64,000 bases of DNA from Patescibacteria group bacterium. Its GTDB lineage: Bacteria > Patescibacteriota > UBA1384 > 2-12-FULL-50-11. The position numbers and the translations under genes were made by a program. Below, piece after piece: positions 2,830 through 7,946 of this stretch (position 1 is its first letter; every line of letters begins with the position of its first letter). The notes beneath the pieces are model-generated. The model had not been told where the DNA came from and did no database searches. It worked only from the letters and a program-made list of their open reading frames with translations. The DNA lies in contig JBBUAP010000001.1 of assembly GCA_038058635.1 (NCBI GenBank), forward strand, positions 295,877 through 359,876, written 5' to 3'.

Positions 2830-4152
2830 ATGTCACTACCCGATTTTTGGGCTGATATATTCAAAAAACCTTGGCGTCGGCTCGGCCGAATCATTGCCAA
2901 GCACGAAAAAGTGCTCTTAGCGATTTTAGCGGTCGTTATTTTAATTAGCGGCGGTTTTTGGTATCGGCAATTCTCCCAAAAGGATGCCAGCCAGCCGACT
3001 ATCGGCGGCACTTATGTTGAGGGGATCGTGTTCGATTCCGACAAAAAAGAGCTCAATCAAATTACGATGCGGCTGACTAAAGCCGGATTGCTCGGTTTTT
3101 CCGCCGAGGGTAATTTGGAGCCGCAGTTGGCCGAGAAGTGGTCGACGAATGACACTAAAACGGAATTCCGGCTGACGCTGGAGGCGAACATTGATCGCGG
3201 GGAAATTGTTGACGCTCTCCAACAAAGAAGCGATCTGCTCGGCAATGTCGATGTTAAAGCCGATGCCGAACGCGATATCATCCTGACCGTGACCGAAGCT
3301 AGCCCGAGCCTGCCATTACTTTTAACTCGACCGATGTTTGATTACGGACCGTATAAACTCGGTAAAGCCAACGACCAAACGACCGTTTTCTCCCGCAACA
3401 CCCGCAAAGGAGCGCTGGCCGCCTACATCAATAAAATTATTATTCATACTTACCCAAACAACGATGAGCTGAAAGATGCCCTGGTTCGCAACCGAATTGA
3501 CGGGGCGGTTTTGCCTTCGAGCAACGAGACGATCAAAAAGTACCAACGAATTGAGATTGGTCTCAACCGCTATTACGCCGTCATGTTCAACATCAATAAA
3601 GTGCCGTTTCGGGATGTTGGTTTGCGCCAGAGCTTAATCAATAGTACTGGCGCTAGTGCTCAACCGTTCAGTCTGACGGCGCCAGATCAAGAGCCGTACA
3701 AGAGCTTGAGCCAAGAATTGGTGACGAAATGGCAAGCGCTGGGTGCTAAAGTCGAACTTGATTTGCGGCCGCTGGAAGAAGTGACTGGCTCGATCGGCCC
3801 GACTCGCAACTTCCAGGCCTTGCTCATCGGGATCGATTACGGTGCGGAGCTCGATCCTTACTACATCTGGCATTCAACTCAAGTTCGAGCAACTGGCAAC
3901 AATGTCACCGGCGTTCGGGAAGAGGCGGTGGATAAACTGGTTGACCAAATCCGTTCGACGCTTGATGTTAGCGACCGAGAAGATTTGATCGTCCAACTTC
4001 ACCAATTACTAGCGACCAAGGGTGTGGCCTTGATTCTTCAGGGCGAAAAAGTGGAATATTACCTATCAAACAAAATCCATTTTGTCGCCCCAACTTTGCC
4101 AAAATCCTCGGCTGACCGATTCCTCTTAGCCGCCCAGTGGTCAGTGAAGTAG
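2830..4152 (+). CDS. membrane-anchored extracellular solute-binding-like protein (possible SBP family 5 / peptide-binding fold)
   Basis: N-terminal TM anchor followed by a roughly 400-aa soluble domain whose layout resembles OppA/DppA-type binding proteins. No permease gene is adjacent. Confidence 0.4.
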   Translation: MSLPDFWADIFKKPWRRLGRIIAKHEKVLLAILAVVILISGGFWYRQFSQKDASQPTIGGTYVEGIVFDSDKKELNQITMRLTKAGLLGFSAEGNLEPQLAEKWSTNDTKTEFRLTLEANIDRGEIVDALQQRSDLLGNVDVKADAERDIILTVTEASPSLPLLLTRPMFDYGPYKLGKANDQTTVFSRNTRKGALAAYINKIIIHTYPNNDELKDALVRNRIDGAVLPSSNETIKKYQRIEIGLNRYYAVMFNINKVPFRDVGLRQSLINSTGASAQPFSLTAPDQEPYKSLSQELVTKWQALGAKVELDLRPLEEVTGSIGPTRNFQALLIGIDYGAELDPYYIWHSTQVRATGNNVTGVREEAVDKLVDQIRSTLDVSDREDLIVQLHQLLATKGVALILQGEKVEYYLSNKIHFVAPTLPKSSADRFLLAAQWSVK

Positions 4153-4193
4153 TGAAATTACCGCCTGTAACGGGTATGATATAGATTGGATTG

Positions 4194-4276
4194 GCCTGGG
4201 TGGTGGAATGGCAGACACGCTGGATTCAGGTTCCAGTGCTCGCAAGAGTGTGGAGGTTCGACTCCTCTTCCAGGCA
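4194..4276 (+). tRNA. tRNA-Leu (anticodon CAG), long variable arm
   Basis: Acceptor GCCTGGG/TCCAGGC with one G-U pair. Anticodon stem CTGGA/TCCAG with loop TTCAGGT. Variable hairpin GCTC-GCAA-GAG. T-arm GGAGG-TTCGACT-CCTCT. Discriminator A. Confidence 0.8.
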
Positions 4277-4279
4277 CAT

Positions 4280-4957
4280 ATGAAACCACTAGGGAGGGTG
4301 TGTTGCGATTGGACTCCAGAATTAGCGTATGCGATTGGATTGATAGTGACGGATGGGAGTTTATATAATGATGGACGACATCTAAACCTTACATCTAAAG
4401 ATCTTGAGCAAATAAAAACTTTCGCGAGTATTCTGGGGCTAAAAAATAAAATCGGCAAAAAAGCCAGTGGCAGTAACAAGTCTAAGGATTATTATAATTT
4501 TCAGTTCGGAGACGTCAACTTCTATCGCTTTCTTGTCTCGATTGGGGTGACTCCAAATAAAACTAAGACGATCGGATCGGTAGATATTCCGAAGCGATAC
4601 TTTCGCGATTTCTTGAGAGGTCACTTCGATGGGGACGGGTGCACGTATTCGTACTACGATCCTCGTTGGCGCAAGAGCTTCCTGCTTTACTTAAATTTTA
4701 TATCTGCAAGCAAAAAACACATGGTATGGATTTGTAAGGAGATAGCTAGCAATGCAGGGGTTCAGGGAAGGGTTACGCGCTCTGGCGCAAGTATTTTTCA
4801 GGTGCGCTTTGCAAAATACGATTCGATGAAATTATTTAGATTCATTTATTACAAACCCGAGCTACCCTGTTTGACTAGAAAGAGGCTAAAGTTTACCGAG
4901 GCAGTAACGCGTGCAACCCTAGCTACGGAGTCGACTACGCAGTATAATTACACGTGA
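4280..4957 (+). CDS. LAGLIDADG-family homing endonuclease (double-motif, single chain)
   Basis: Two LAGLIDADG motifs: LAYAIGLIVTDGSL and FLRGHFDGDGCT. The ATG lies 3 nt after the tRNA-Leu(CAG) discriminator and the stop lies 3 nt before tRNA-Leu(GAG). The longer 4208 start overlaps the tRNA. Confidence 0.8.
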   Translation: MKPLGRVCCDWTPELAYAIGLIVTDGSLYNDGRHLNLTSKDLEQIKTFASILGLKNKIGKKASGSNKSKDYYNFQFGDVNFYRFLVSIGVTPNKTKTIGSVDIPKRYFRDFLRGHFDGDGCTYSYYDPRWRKSFLLYLNFISASKKHMVWICKEIASNAGVQGRVTRSGASIFQVRFAKYDSMKLFRFIYYKPELPCLTRKRLKFTEAVTRATLATESTTQYNYT

Positions 4958-4960
4958 TTT

Positions 4961-5047
4961 GCCCAGGTGGAGAAATCGGTAAACTCGCAGCCTTGAGGTG
5001 GCTGTGCTCGAAAGAGCTTGGAGGTTCAAGTCCTCTCCTGGGCACCA
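4961..5047 (+). tRNA. tRNA-Leu (anticodon GAG), long variable arm, CCA encoded
   Basis: Acceptor GCCCAGG/CCTGGGC. Anticodon stem CAGCC/GGCTG with loop TTGAGGT. Variable hairpin. T-arm GGAGG-TTCAAGT-CCTCT. Discriminator A then CCA. Confidence 0.8.
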
Positions 5048-5149
5048 CGTAGTAACTTGTTCGGAAATGACTGCTCCGCGAGGGTGCGGCGGATCTTTAC
5101 CCAGCACCAGTAGTAACTTTTGGGCTGAGTGATACGATGATGAAACAGA

Positions 5150-6634
5150 ATGAAAGAGTTGGATTTGGTTGCTTATATCAAGGAACAGCTTGGCTCCAAG
5201 CAAACCGTTCAGGCGGTTATTACCTCCTTGGAAGCCGAGGGCTATAACCAAGAACAGATTGATGCGGCATTTCGGCTGGCTCTCCATCCCGCAAGTAGCA
5301 TTAACGGCGGCGGGGCAATTGGAAGCTCCGAGCCCAAAAAGGCCCTCTTCAATTTTAGTCATTTCGACTTAACACGCGCCTTTCTTTTTCTTGGCTCAAT
5401 TCTAGTGCTCGTCGCCCTGATCATCGTTATTTATTCGCAGTGGGCGACCGTCACGCCTTTGGTGCGTATTTCCTTTTTGGCTCTGCCGATGCTGGCCTTG
5501 TATCTAACGGCCGGGTACTTAGCAAAAAAGCCCAACTACAGTGATGCCTTTCGAATCTGCTTGGCGACGGCTAGCTTGATGCTGCCTTTTACCATCGGCA
5601 CTCTTCTTTATCAAACCGGCATTCTACCGACGATCGGCGAGCTCCTCTTTTTCTGCTCGGCCGCCAGCGCCTTAATTATCTACATTCTCTTTGAATACAT
5701 CTTCAAACAAACCTATCTCTCGTTTTTGACGGTGACCGCTTTCGCTGTGGCCTTGGTCTCGTTACTGACGACTTTGGCGCTCGATATCCTACCGACACTC
5801 TGGATAATGCTGATCGCCTCGGCCCTCGTCGCGGCCTGGGGAATATTTTTAGCCAGCCGGCAAAGGTCGGGCTGCAGTATTTACATTACCGTTGGGACAA
5901 TCGCCACCCTCGTCCTACTGCCAGCCAGCACTCTAACCACCCTCGGTCAAAACGCCGGCATTTCCTATCAGTCGTCGCTCGTTATTGTGGCCGGCTTTGG
6001 TTTGCTCAACCTGGCCGTTGCCTCGTTCTATAATGTTTGTCGAGGCCTCTGGCAGCCGGAGGTTTTTTATCGCATCAAACGCTTACTGGAAGAGACAGCC
6101 ATTCTGGTGATTCTGACGCCGTTGTTGATTTTGGGCTTTCAAGAAGATGCCTACATCTTCGTGGCTTTGGCTTTCAGCTTGGGCTTCGTCCTGCTACGAA
6201 CCCAAGTGGCGATTTCTAGCTTGGCCACTTTTGGGGCAATAGGCACAGTCATCAGCGTTATTGCCATCTCTAGCCAATTCTTTGCCGATTCGATCGGTTG
6301 GCCGATCATTGTTTTTCTGGCCGGCTTCGTCGCTATCGGCTTGGGTTTACTAATTCGAAAAATGACGGTCTTCAATCGATTCAACACTCAAGCGACGCTG
6401 CGGCTGGGCTTGGGGCAGGATCCGGCTTTTGAGTCGCGAGGCCATACCTTCGCCTGGGCCAAGACTCTGGGGGCGCTACTACTAATCTTACTGCTGTTCC
6501 AATTTGTGGCAGCATCGCTGACGGGGCTTAGCGGTAATCGCAATTTCGATTCACCAACAAAGACCCCGACTGAGCCGTATCAAGAGCGAGTCCCCGCTTC
6601 ATCTAGTAGTGTTGAGGAGGCGATCGGTGATTAA
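5150..6634 (+). CDS. polytopic integral membrane protein, about 12 TM helices, function unknown
   Basis: 494 aa. Soluble N-terminal 60 aa followed by many hydrophobic helices. Confidence 0.5.
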   Translation: MKELDLVAYIKEQLGSKQTVQAVITSLEAEGYNQEQIDAAFRLALHPASSINGGGAIGSSEPKKALFNFSHFDLTRAFLFLGSILVLVALIIVIYSQWATVTPLVRISFLALPMLALYLTAGYLAKKPNYSDAFRICLATASLMLPFTIGTLLYQTGILPTIGELLFFCSAASALIIYILFEYIFKQTYLSFLTVTAFAVALVSLLTTLALDILPTLWIMLIASALVAAWGIFLASRQRSGCSIYITVGTIATLVLLPASTLTTLGQNAGISYQSSLVIVAGFGLLNLAVASFYNVCRGLWQPEVFYRIKRLLEETAILVILTPLLILGFQEDAYIFVALAFSLGFVLLRTQVAISSLATFGAIGTVISVIAISSQFFADSIGWPIIVFLAGFVAIGLGLLIRKMTVFNRFNTQATLRLGLGQDPAFESRGHTFAWAKTLGALLLILLLFQFVAASLTGLSGNRNFDSPTKTPTEPYQERVPASSSSVEEAIGD

Positions 6635-7946
6635 ATTTAAGGGGCCGTTATCTCTCCTGGCAATAGTTCTGGTGGCGATCGGCTTAATCGTCGCCGTTTC
6701 GGTTTGGCTGGCCAATATCGAAGGCGGCGTTAGTTTTACGGCCACGCCACTTACCCTTACGAATACAAATTCCCAGCCGGGAATATTGGCTCAACAGTCA
6801 ACCTCGTTAAATTGGCTCGATCCAACTAGCGGTCAGAGCGTCAAAAAAATAACGGTCGAAGGCTTGAACGATGTCTCGACGGTTACTTACGATACGACCA
6901 GCACTAATCAGGAAATCTACAAAGTTTCTTCCGATGGCAAGTACCTGGCGTTAGCTAGCCCGACAACGACCGTTCTCTACGGTTATCCCTACTCGAAAAC
7001 AAATACGGTCGAGGCGACGATCGTAATCGTCGATCTAGCCAGCGGTGAGGCTCAAACAGTCGTCAAATTCGATCCCAAAACGGCGCTGGTGGATATCGCC
7101 TGGGATTTTTCCAACCCTGATGTGATTGGCTTTGCCACCGTCTCTAAAGCCAGCTTGAGTAACCGTTACGAGGTATTACCGATGATGATGCTTTACCCGG
7201 GCCCAGCTACCAATTTGGGTAAATTACACCTAACACGACTGGATTTACGGACCGCTCAATCAAAAAGTACGGAATACGAATTAAGTAATGTCAACTACAA
7301 TCCGCCCATGTTAATGGGCTTAAACGAGACCAAGTTTTGGCTGATCAACAACTCGCTGACTTCCGTTAGTGCTGAAGGCGCGGTCAGTCAGGAGAGCGAC
7401 GTAGTTGCAACTTCTGCATACTACAACAGCGCCAATTTTGGCAATCTCGCCACCAACAACGATCATTCGGTGGTGGCGCTGACTGCGGACAACAAGATCG
7501 TCGTTTACTGGCTCAAGACTGGTCAAAAGCAGGAGCTTAATTTAGCCCAGACCAGTAGAAATATCCAGGTTACTAGCCTAGCGGTATCTAGGAGCGGTAC
7601 CGAGATTGCTTTTGTTGGCCAAACTCTCAATTCAGGAGCGGCGCCAGTTTATGTCAGCCAAAGCCTTCTCTGGTATTACAACCTTGACACCGGTGTTAGC
7701 GAAGAGCTAATCACTTGGACCGACAGCCCAACATTTGGTGGGGTTAAACCCATTCAGGCCGATCAAATTAGTCGGTCGCTGGTTTGGTCGCCGGACGGTA
7801 AGCAGTTGGCGGCAATTTTGCCAAAAAGCGATTCCGCGAGTCCGCTGGCGCAATCAGAGCTGAAAATTTTCACGATTGGAACAAACGGTCGGACAGCCAC
7901 GGTAGACTTGGGAGCTGTCAGCACTCGACTGATTCGCTGGCAGTAG
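6627..7946 (+). CDS. membrane-anchored beta-propeller protein (TolB/PD40-like repeats)
   Basis: GTG start preceded by GAGGAGG with a 6-nt spacer. N-terminal TM anchor. Repeated SPDGK / SRSGTEIAF motifs typical of PD40 blades. Confidence 0.5.
   Translation: MIKFKGPLSLLAIVLVAIGLIVAVSVWLANIEGGVSFTATPLTLTNTNSQPGILAQQSTSLNWLDPTSGQSVKKITVEGLNDVSTVTYDTTSTNQEIYKVSSDGKYLALASPTTTVLYGYPYSKTNTVEATIVIVDLASGEAQTVVKFDPKTALVDIAWDFSNPDVIGFATVSKASLSNRYEVLPMMMLYPGPATNLGKLHLTRLDLRTAQSKSTEYELSNVNYNPPMLMGLNETKFWLINNSLTSVSAEGAVSQESDVVATSAYYNSANFGNLATNNDHSVVALTADNKIVVYWLKTGQKQELNLAQTSRNIQVTSLAVSRSGTEIAFVGQTLNSGAAPVYVSQSLLWYYNLDTGVSEELITWTDSPTFGGVKPIQADQISRSLVWSPDGKQLAAILPKSDSASPLAQSELKIFTIGTNGRTATVDLGAVSTRLIRWQ

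Follow-up and report, generated by a model that had tools for sequence, protein, structure and literature searches.

What is a homing endonuclease gene doing between two tRNA genes of a bacterium, wedged so tightly that neither an intron nor a promoter of its own would fit, and by what route could it have arrived there? The question arises in a stretch of 64,000 nucleotides (nt) of contig JBBUAP010000001.1 (here called the window), which stems from a population of Hainich groundwater Patescibacteria and in which an open reading frame (ORF) for a LAGLIDADG protein separates tRNA-Leu(CAG) from tRNA-Leu(GAG). Comparison of this locus with those of its relatives suggests that the ORF is probably a mobile homing endonuclease gene (HEG), linked to tRNA-Leu(GAG) and active or recently active. 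The features of the locus are as follows (coordinates are those of the window; lengths of proteins are in amino acids, aa).

4152..4180, + strand: promoter-like site GTGAAA-17-TATGAT, just 5' of tRNA-Leu(CAG) (consensus scan, 9/12 matches)
4194..4276, + strand: tRNA-Leu(CAG), no encoded CCA (ARAGORN; Rfam RF00005, 48.5 bits)
4277..4279, + strand: spacer CAT (3 nt), from discriminator to ATG (read from the sequence)
4280..4957, + strand: predicted free-standing LAGLIDADG homing endonuclease gene, 225 aa plus stop (Pfam PF14528; AlphaFold2, AF2; Foldseek; homologs)
4322..4357, + strand: LAGLIDADG motif 1, LAYAIGLIVTDG, with the predicted catalytic Asp25 codon at 4352-4354 (D25 invariant in a 30-sequence alignment)
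4395..4640, + strand: tract near-identical to Berkelbacteria locus L001 (sliding identity, three-way alignment)
4610..4639, + strand: LAGLIDADG motif 2, FLRGHFDGDG, with the predicted catalytic Asp119 codon at 4634-4636 (D119 invariant in the same alignment)
4943..4948, + strand: TATAAT hexamer within the final ORF codons, 12 nt before position +1 of tRNA-Leu(GAG) (sequence)
4958..4960, + strand: spacer TTT (3 nt), from stop codon to tRNA (sequence)
4961..5047, + strand: tRNA-Leu(GAG), encoded CCA at 5045-5047 (ARAGORN; Rfam, 52.2 bits)
5104..5119, + strand: second copy of the tRNA 3' end plus flank, GCACCAGTAGTAACTT (sequence comparison; first copy at 5042-5057)

Both tRNA genes are intact. 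ARAGORN calls them at 4194-4277 and 4961-5047, and the Rfam tRNA model, with a gathering score of 29, yields 48.5 bits for 4194-4276 and 52.2 bits for 4961-5044; the failure of a gathering scan over the whole window to report tRNA-Leu(GAG) is a filter effect. The landmarks can be read from the sequence, with A4276 as discriminator, ATG at 4280, TGA at 4955-4957, and G4961 as the first base of the second tRNA. There is no intron core, because Rfam at E ≤ 1 finds only the two tRNAs between 4000 and 5300 and neither a group I intron nor any other structured RNA. An endonuclease encoded by a group I intron in the anticodon loop was considered and is ruled out, the tRNAs being uninterrupted and no intron model matching. 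An earlier note on this DNA, made from the letters alone, had described a double-motif LAGLIDADG ORF at 4280-4957 with 3-nt spacers on both sides, set between intact tRNAs that no intron interrupts and lacking a group I intron core and a Shine-Dalgarno (SD) sequence, and all of these structural claims hold. The G+C content of the ORF is ~42%, compared with ~50% in the flanks. The public gene call (P0001, labelled hypothetical) comprises 249 aa and begins at an in-frame ATG inside the tRNA (4208); to judge from the alignment, this start is an annotation artefact, because the family N-terminus MKPLGK aligns at ATG 4280.

By sequence, motifs, and modelled fold, the protein is a well-maintained monomeric double-motif LAGLIDADG homing endonuclease. 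A profile search and a structure prediction, which the earlier note had proposed as checks, agree on this point. The Pfam model LAGLIDADG_3 (PF14528) matches with 29.0 bits against a cut-off of 22.5 (E 1.3e-6), and the AF2 model (predicted local distance difference test, pLDDT, 91.9; predicted template modelling score, pTM, 0.88) shows two alpha-beta-beta-alpha-beta-beta-alpha halves, the fold of a monomeric homing endonuclease. The best Foldseek match in the PDB is I-Tsp061I (2DCH; E 1.7e-11), followed by intein endonucleases, I-DmoI, I-AniI, the bI3 maturase, and WhiA; there are 109 PDB matches at E ≤ 0.001, and the 50 listed are all LAGLIDADG enzymes, LAGLIDADG maturases, or WhiA. A sequence profile search of the PDB again places 2DCH at the top (E 3e-7), at an identity of only 20%. 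The alignment of 30 homologs contains 44 invariant columns, which include D25 (in TDG) and D119 (in DGDG), and a basic C-terminal CLxRKRxK is among its conserved features. Pairwise ratios of nonsynonymous to synonymous substitution (dN/dS) range from 0.06 to 0.12, with dS near saturation. The earlier note had stated that its idea would fail if the catalytic acidic residues were missing or if all relatives carried the ORF at this locus; the residues are present and invariant in all 30 members, and empty sites exist.

These empty sites were found among relatives that were retrieved via orthologs of the upstream SBP_bac_5 gene (SBP) and, in a second lineage (Parcubacteria), via rplS, a sampling that is blind to the HEG because it is anchored on neighbouring genes. 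In the SBP comparison, the earlier note's proposal to look for loci with and without the insert is answered by both kinds: the window and the loci L090, L001, and L003 are occupied, whereas L093 (SBP 90% identical to that of the window) has 21 nt and no ORF between tRNA-Leu(CAG) and tRNA-Leu(GAG), and L091 and L092 (SBP 72% identical) have just CAAT (4 nt) between the tRNAs. The insertion is clean, with GGCA/CAA[ATG...GATT]T/GCCC in the occupied L090 versus GGCA/CAAT/GCCC in the empty L091. Among the Parcubacteria anchored on rplS, 28 sites are empty and 3 are occupied (~10% occupancy); at the empty sites, tRNA-Leu(GAG) follows 0-100 nt past the rplS stop codon, except in L104, where the gap is 298 nt.

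Exchange of alleles is evident also among the occupied sites. The SBP of L090 is 97% identical to that of the window and its DNA flanks are 88-92% identical, but the HEG allele at the same site is only 58% identical at the protein level, and both tRNA alleles differ from those of the window. The window and L001, whose SBP genes are only about 50-70% identical, are near-identical over about 250 nt of the HEG (4395-4640, with a single difference in nt 4495-4594) against a background identity of 55-75% around this tract, a pattern that suggests gene conversion or recombination. Between L001 and L003, identity is complete from the 3' end of the HEG through the final base of tRNA-Leu(GAG) and breaks off immediately beyond it. 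The tRNA alleles go with the HEG alleles and not with the genome background, and the near-identical tracts stop at the tRNA 3' end. Together with the low dN/dS, these mosaic tracts fit an active homing element. Where the earlier note had wavered between a domesticated and a still mobile element, the empty sites, the allele swap in L090, the mosaic tracts, and the low occupancy speak for mobility and against domestication.

The gene belongs to a large and apparently undescribed family, with 2451 homologs in the protein database and no model in NCBIfam. Its members occur in at least 585 GTDB species genomes, all of them Patescibacteria or labelled so, and retain 50-60% identity across superphylum-level lineages. 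Their loci were surveyed in the best 80 of the GTDB set (79 non-redundant loci for the end positions). A tRNA-Leu(GAG) on the same strand follows the ORF in 78 of the 80 loci and in 78/78 of those that can be assessed; the contigs of the remaining two end ≤90 nt past the stop codon. The stop codon lies 0-31 nt before position +1 of the tRNA in 48 of the 79 loci, whereas in 28 the ORF reads into the tRNA and ends there at the TGA of U33-G34-A35 in the anticodon loop (16 loci) or at a TAA in the D-loop (8 loci). In-frame stops at conserved codons are present only in 2/79 loci: the invariant Gly163 codon of L034 (~2984) and the invariant Trp11 codon of L078 (~2190) are each TGA, which could be decay or sequencing errors.

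The neighbour on the 5' side of the ORF varies. It is tRNA-Leu(CAG) in the clade of the window and in Microgenomates-like genomes but rplS or another protein gene in Parcubacteria, so that the placement of the ORF between a pair of tRNA-Leu genes is a feature of one lineage. As far as gene order tells, the conserved partner is the downstream tRNA-Leu(GAG) and not the tRNA pair, and tRNA-Leu(GAG) is the presumed target gene of the endonuclease family. The earlier suggestion that the tRNA-Leu locus itself is the home site is favoured by the empty sites, with the refinement that the conserved link involves tRNA-Leu(GAG) only. At two loci (L105:2962-3045 and L121:968-1049), a tRNA-Leu with the anticodon AAG occupies the place where relatives carry tRNA-Leu(GAG); leucine tRNAs with A34 are unusual for bacteria. 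A phage vector for the family is unsupported, because IMG/VR contains only distant LAGLIDADG proteins, the best match being 34% identical.

How the element reached this position is suggested by a tRNA-like sequence upstream of the ORF. The motif TGGTA(T/G)ACGCTAT-N-CTTGAGG (TGGTATACGCTAT...CTTGAGG) is located 30-60 nt 5' of the start codon in relatives of the window, in 60/79 loci according to a loose pattern and in 46/81 according to a strict one (GG[TC]A[TGA]AC[GA]C[TA]A-N3-6-TTGA[GT]); elsewhere in the 877 kb of fetched sequence the strict motif has no occurrence, and none of the 28 empty sites carries it. The motif resembles tRNA-Leu from about nt 15 to 38, that is, from the D-loop to the anticodon loop, GAG anticodon included. 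A search with a tRNA-Leu(GAG) profile (nhmmer), which is insensitive to 23-nt fragments, detected ~15 loci and was used for homology coordinates only; the detectable fragments span model positions ~1-17 to 35-41 and end consistently at the anticodon loop. Longer fragments that reach tRNA positions 1-10 occur in L115, L119, L062, L044, and L030. In L115, a complete fragment of nt 1-38 (GGGCGAGTGGCGAAATCGGTATACGTTTTCAGTTTGAGAG) adjoins the rplS stop codon, in exactly the place that the tRNA takes at empty sites; next come the HEG and then a second, different tRNA-Leu(GAG), which is intact. L099 and L119 show a similar arrangement. The acceptor stems GCCCAGG (L115) and GCCGAGG (L119) are unlike those of HEG-less relatives, the nearest of which are only 66-77% identical in the flanks. 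Two other origins of the motif were considered and rejected: it is not a native promoter of the tRNA operon, because it is missing from all 28 empty sites, nor a fresh duplicate of the cognate tRNA, because it is more alike between loci than to the tRNA of its own locus.

It appears from these fragments that the element probably entered via the tRNA-Leu(GAG) gene itself and not via the spacer. A mechanism of gene-half replacement can be proposed tentatively, its chances lying close to the balance point. The enzyme would cut HEG-less alleles of tRNA-Leu(GAG) in or near the anticodon arm, and repair from an occupied allele would copy the HEG plus its copy of tRNA-Leu(GAG), which, carried along in this way, would keep the essential tRNA intact without an intron. 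In most lineages, the displaced 5' part of the old tRNA (~nt 15-38) would stay 5' of the HEG, where it would act as the homology arm on the left and supply a promoter with its -35 region, whereas in the lineage of the window, the left homology as well as the transcript would come from tRNA-Leu(CAG), which abuts the ATG.

The same motif admits a different reading, in which a mobile HEG targets the junction immediately 5' of tRNA-Leu(GAG) instead of the interior of the tRNA. No half of a tRNA would then have been displaced, and the tRNA-like motif would be a mimic of the homing site with the role of a promoter or operator, comparable to the autorepression of I-TevI. A junction-spanning target is a serious alternative: the insertion in the clade of the window lies cleanly within a 4-nt spacer between the tRNAs and has no fragment, the identical tRNA-Leu(GAG) genes of L090 and L091 fit a site that is destroyed by the insertion itself, and the motif overlaps the -35 region and differs less between loci than it does from the tRNA downstream of it. 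It does not readily explain, however, why the fragments of five loci extend to tRNA positions 1-10, why that of L115 begins where empty sites have the tRNA, and why fragments end so consistently at the anticodon loop; moreover, the sequence 5' of the tRNA is not conserved in Parcubacteria, which would leave the enzyme a single half-site. Taken together, these points render a junction target unlikely.

Several observations nevertheless count against replacement of a tRNA half, or against ongoing mobility in general. The fragment is absent from the locus of the window and from its clade, so the replacement model rests on relatives, and the cut site is deduced only from the end point of the fragment. 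The family tree broadly tracks taxonomy, with the sequences of Microgenomates-like genomes and Parcubacteria apart, and a search for recent transfers (HEGs ≥80% identical in divergent flanks) returned the window and L001 as the single pair among the 80 GTDB loci, a search that says little on wider lateral transfer; tree and pair together imply that much of the inheritance is vertical. No presence/absence polymorphism was seen in the species of the window, where 11/11 contigs with the exact SBP protein carry the HEG. Because the tRNA-Leu(GAG) genes of the HEG-less L091 and the occupied L090 are 99-100% identical, the tRNA sequence cannot explain immunity there, unless L091 received a short conversion tract or lost its HEG. 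The empty sites could in fact represent precise loss via recombination between fragment and tRNA rather than alleles that were never invaded. Mosaicism is also not unique to the HEG, because secG (~2598-2798 of the window) is likewise 97% identical to L001 at the DNA level (91-94% to L003), which reflects either extreme constraint or another recombination tract. Finally, all sequences come from metagenome assemblies, in which an occasional contig may be chimeric.

Some of these observations would be expected if the gene were an ancient, vertically inherited relic that was fixed early beside tRNA-Leu(GAG), has often been lost, and no longer homes, its adjacency to the tRNA persisting merely for want of room for breakpoints. 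The tree separates the Microgenomates-like loci, with tRNA-Leu(CAG) upstream, from those of Parcubacteria, close HEG pairs in divergent backgrounds are almost lacking among species representatives, and fragment and tRNA constitute direct repeats that would allow precise deletion. An inactive HEG should decay, yet the catalytic Asp residues are invariant, dN/dS is as low as 0.06-0.12, and in-frame stops are confined to 2/79 loci. Nor would a relic account for near-conspecific genomes with alleles just 58% identical, or for a near-identical tract of 250 nt within DNA that is 55-70% identical, and we regard this explanation as improbable.

Even less probable is a domesticated host protein, such as a DNA-binding regulator resembling WhiA or a maturase of the rRNA introns that are common in Patescibacteria, that is co-expressed with tRNA-Leu(GAG). 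The family is conserved to a degree unusual for HEGs (50-60% identity across superphylum-level lineages, 2451 homologs), purifying selection is strong, and WhiA and the maturases bI3 and I-AniI are among the structural matches. However, occupancy in the unbiased sample is patchy (~3/31), clean empty sites exist in close relatives, the protein has kept the catalytic Asp residues, which WhiA has not, and alleles are replaced between near-identical genomes. An artefact of assembly or annotation (a chimeric contig or a spurious ORF), for which one could cite that all data are metagenome assemblies and that several related contigs end just after the tRNA, can be dismissed almost entirely, since the same layout recurs in 11 contigs from several samples of the window's own species and in hundreds of independent assemblies and since the structure model has high confidence.

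A mobile HEG that enters via tRNA-Leu(GAG) would have its closest counterparts among the mobile ORFs (mORFs) of fungal mitochondria, in which ORFs for LAGLIDADG or GIY-YIG endonucleases enter atp6, atp9, cox2, and nad3 together with a replacement for the gene end, for example, in atp6 of Allomyces macrogynus and in Glomus sp. (PMC3630166). Most relatives of the window would resemble these mORFs in that a free-standing endonuclease ORF without an intron enters an essential gene and brings along a copy of the interrupted part, the native part being pushed aside next to it, and in that hybrid or foreign alleles spread with the element. Unlike the mORFs, which target mitochondrial protein genes, the present family would target a bacterial tRNA gene; the replaced part would be the 5' part or the whole of the tRNA, in the mirror-image order of fragment, ORF, and intact gene; and the displaced fragment is apparently re-used as a promoter for a leaderless mRNA, whereas the copy in the window has no fragment. 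Phages also harbour free-standing homing endonucleases within or beside tRNA clusters, such as SegB of T4 and F-Tfl of T5, which are of the GIY-YIG or HNH type. They resemble the present case in the location of the endonuclease gene in a spacer of a tRNA cluster, and homing would in the present case, too, proceed via a cut in a conserved gene close by, whereupon flanking markers would be co-converted, but the genes described here encode LAGLIDADG proteins, reside in cellular genomes, and are tied to one tRNA across a whole phylum.

The archaeal enzymes I-Tsp061I and I-DmoI share with the predicted protein the monomeric two-domain fold and the Pfam family; they are, like the LAGLIDADG proteins from rRNA introns of Patescibacteria, borne by introns in rRNA genes, whereas the present gene lacks an intron and is linked to a tRNA. 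With group I introns of tRNA genes, the element would have in common the entry at the anticodon loop, the classical site of tRNA introns, but it has no ribozyme and leaves the tRNA uninterrupted. Patescibacteria are known to carry LAGLIDADG genes, which in the full-text literature were found only in rRNA introns (PMC7143001, PMC11809585), and a survey of their tRNA introns from 2026 reports HNH genes in introns of tRNA-Asn and mentions no case of LAGLIDADG or tRNA-Leu(GAG) (PMC13011429). The literature search returned nothing that combines Patescibacteria, a homing endonuclease, and tRNA-Leu.

The family appears to rely on leaderless mRNAs for translation. In 58/78 loci, an in-frame start codon is preceded by a -10-like hexamer that stops 4-14 nt short of it, most often with a gap of 6 nt (28 loci) or 7 nt (11 loci), a peak that is somewhat inflated because the choice of start codons favoured a 7-nt gap. 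A -10 box only 6-7 nt before the ATG implies a leaderless mRNA, and an SD-like tetramer is present in only 6 of the 58 loci with such a box. For the near-leaderless expression that the earlier note had suggested, these loci offer indirect support.

The window has no room for such an arrangement before the ORF. The transcript of tRNA-Leu(CAG) and HEG likely starts at the promoter-like site 4152-4180, the -10 position of which is matched by TATAAT at the same place in L001 and L003; no terminator-like site was found within 4050-5200. RNase Z cuts tRNA precursors that lack CCA after the discriminator. Cleavage of this type after the CCA-less tRNA-Leu(CAG) would leave an mRNA that begins with 5'-CAUAUG, in line with the earlier note, and cleavage by RNase P at tRNA-Leu(GAG) would set its 3' end. 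The TATAAT at 4943-4948, which lacks a good -35 and for this reason escaped the promoter scan, may be a separate promoter for tRNA-Leu(GAG); the same hexamer precedes this tRNA in the spacer of L001, L003, L090, and L012.

Two further ORFs of the window abut tRNA genes, which indicates that tRNA-punctuated ORFs recur in this genome. One (1444-1866) encodes an NlpC/P60 peptidase and starts 0 nt after the CCA of tRNA-Gly(GCC); the other (1988-2533), of 181 aa and without a Pfam match, begins 4 nt past tRNA-Cys. Neither occurs in L090, L001, or L003, and both look like insertions into the tRNA array that may be expressed via tRNA processing.

In its broadest form, the interpretation would be that intron-less HEGs throughout the phylum invade an essential tRNA gene with a replacement copy, retain one half of the old gene as homology arm and promoter, and exchange tRNA-Leu alleles between genomes, and that ORFs at tRNA-Phe, tRNA-Gly, and tRNA-Val perhaps behave alike; this extended scenario is possible, although we consider it slightly more apt to be wrong than right. 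To our knowledge, free-standing LAGLIDADG homing genes are barely documented in bacteria and are known mainly from organelles, archaeal introns, and inteins. If the scenario is true, tRNA clusters would be a general landing pad for such elements in reduced genomes, and the family would constitute a very widespread selfish element (at least 585 species, 2451 proteins) of ultra-small bacteria with extremely reduced genomes. It would explain an unexpected horizontal exchange of tRNA-Leu alleles and offer a route for an endonuclease gene into an essential RNA gene without a ribozyme. Its members would represent natural meganucleases with a predictable and conserved predicted target in the tRNA-Leu(GAG) gene and would provide a set of candidate bacterial mRNAs that are leaderless or punctuated by tRNAs. 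For annotation, it matters that public gene calls run the ORF into the tRNA (249 versus 225 aa).

The region around the 3' end of tRNA-Leu(GAG) has further peculiarities. The 3' end and its flank, GCACCA(C)GTAGTAACTT, are directly repeated at 5042-5057 and 5104-5119 in the window and at ~6306-6320 and ~7020-7035 in L090; the copies are 56 nt apart in the former and ~700 nt apart in the latter, with an ORF of 124 aa between them. Similarity between the window and L090 restarts exactly at the second copy (5104), and the repeat may be a remnant of an element that had integrated here, or it may delimit the exchanged segment on the right. At the HEG-less locus of L091, the gene of a 516-aa serine recombinase (5646-7196, minus strand; domains Resolvase, Recombinase, and Zn_ribbon_recom) overlaps the 3' end of tRNA-Leu(GAG), which may thus also be an integration site. 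Several independent assemblies (L001-L005, L010, L011) break 0-130 nt after tRNA-Leu(GAG), which suggests strain heterogeneity or repeats just downstream. On the other side of the site, L093 has a 16-nt copy of the 5' end of tRNA-Leu(CAG) (GCCTGGGTGGCGAAAT) at ~2298-2313, 38 nt 5' of the real tRNA, possibly a trace left by a previous insertion or excision.

A second family of ORFs beside tRNA genes encodes proteins of ~220-230 aa with an N-terminal helix-turn-helix (HTH) and one LAGLIDADG-like motif, LYWxEGxK. Its members were located as follows (locus and coordinates).

L006:4047-4709, second-family ORF
L095:3480-4142, second-family ORF
L097:3116-3787, second-family ORF
L104:2022-2681, second-family ORF
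L022:3707-4369, second-family ORF
L025:4699-5370, second-family ORF
L102:3576-4271, second-family ORF
L118:3594-4289, second-family ORF
L121:1584-2240, second-family ORF
L030:4097-4795, second-family ORF
L065:50-739, second-family ORF
L114:543-1232, second-family ORF
L117:186-872, second-family ORF

The partners of these ORFs are tRNA-Phe(GAA), tRNA-Gly(GCC), and tRNA-Val(GAC) in tRNA clusters of Parcubacteria, and the ORFs end between ~37 nt before and ~10 nt inside the start of the tRNA (at the loci with checked coordinates). A -10-like box, in many cases of the TGnTATAAT type, precedes most of them. A comparison of the second family with LAGLIDADG proteins gave an hhalign probability of 1%, and its PDB matches concern only the HTH. 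L106 (3530-4264) carries a true paralog (48% identical) of the LAGLIDADG family otherwise linked to tRNA-Leu(GAG); it adjoins tRNA-Phe(GAA) on the 5' side and extends into this tRNA gene, while the tRNA-Leu(GAG) site of L106 holds no ORF, and the LAGLIDADG family may have switched tRNA targets.

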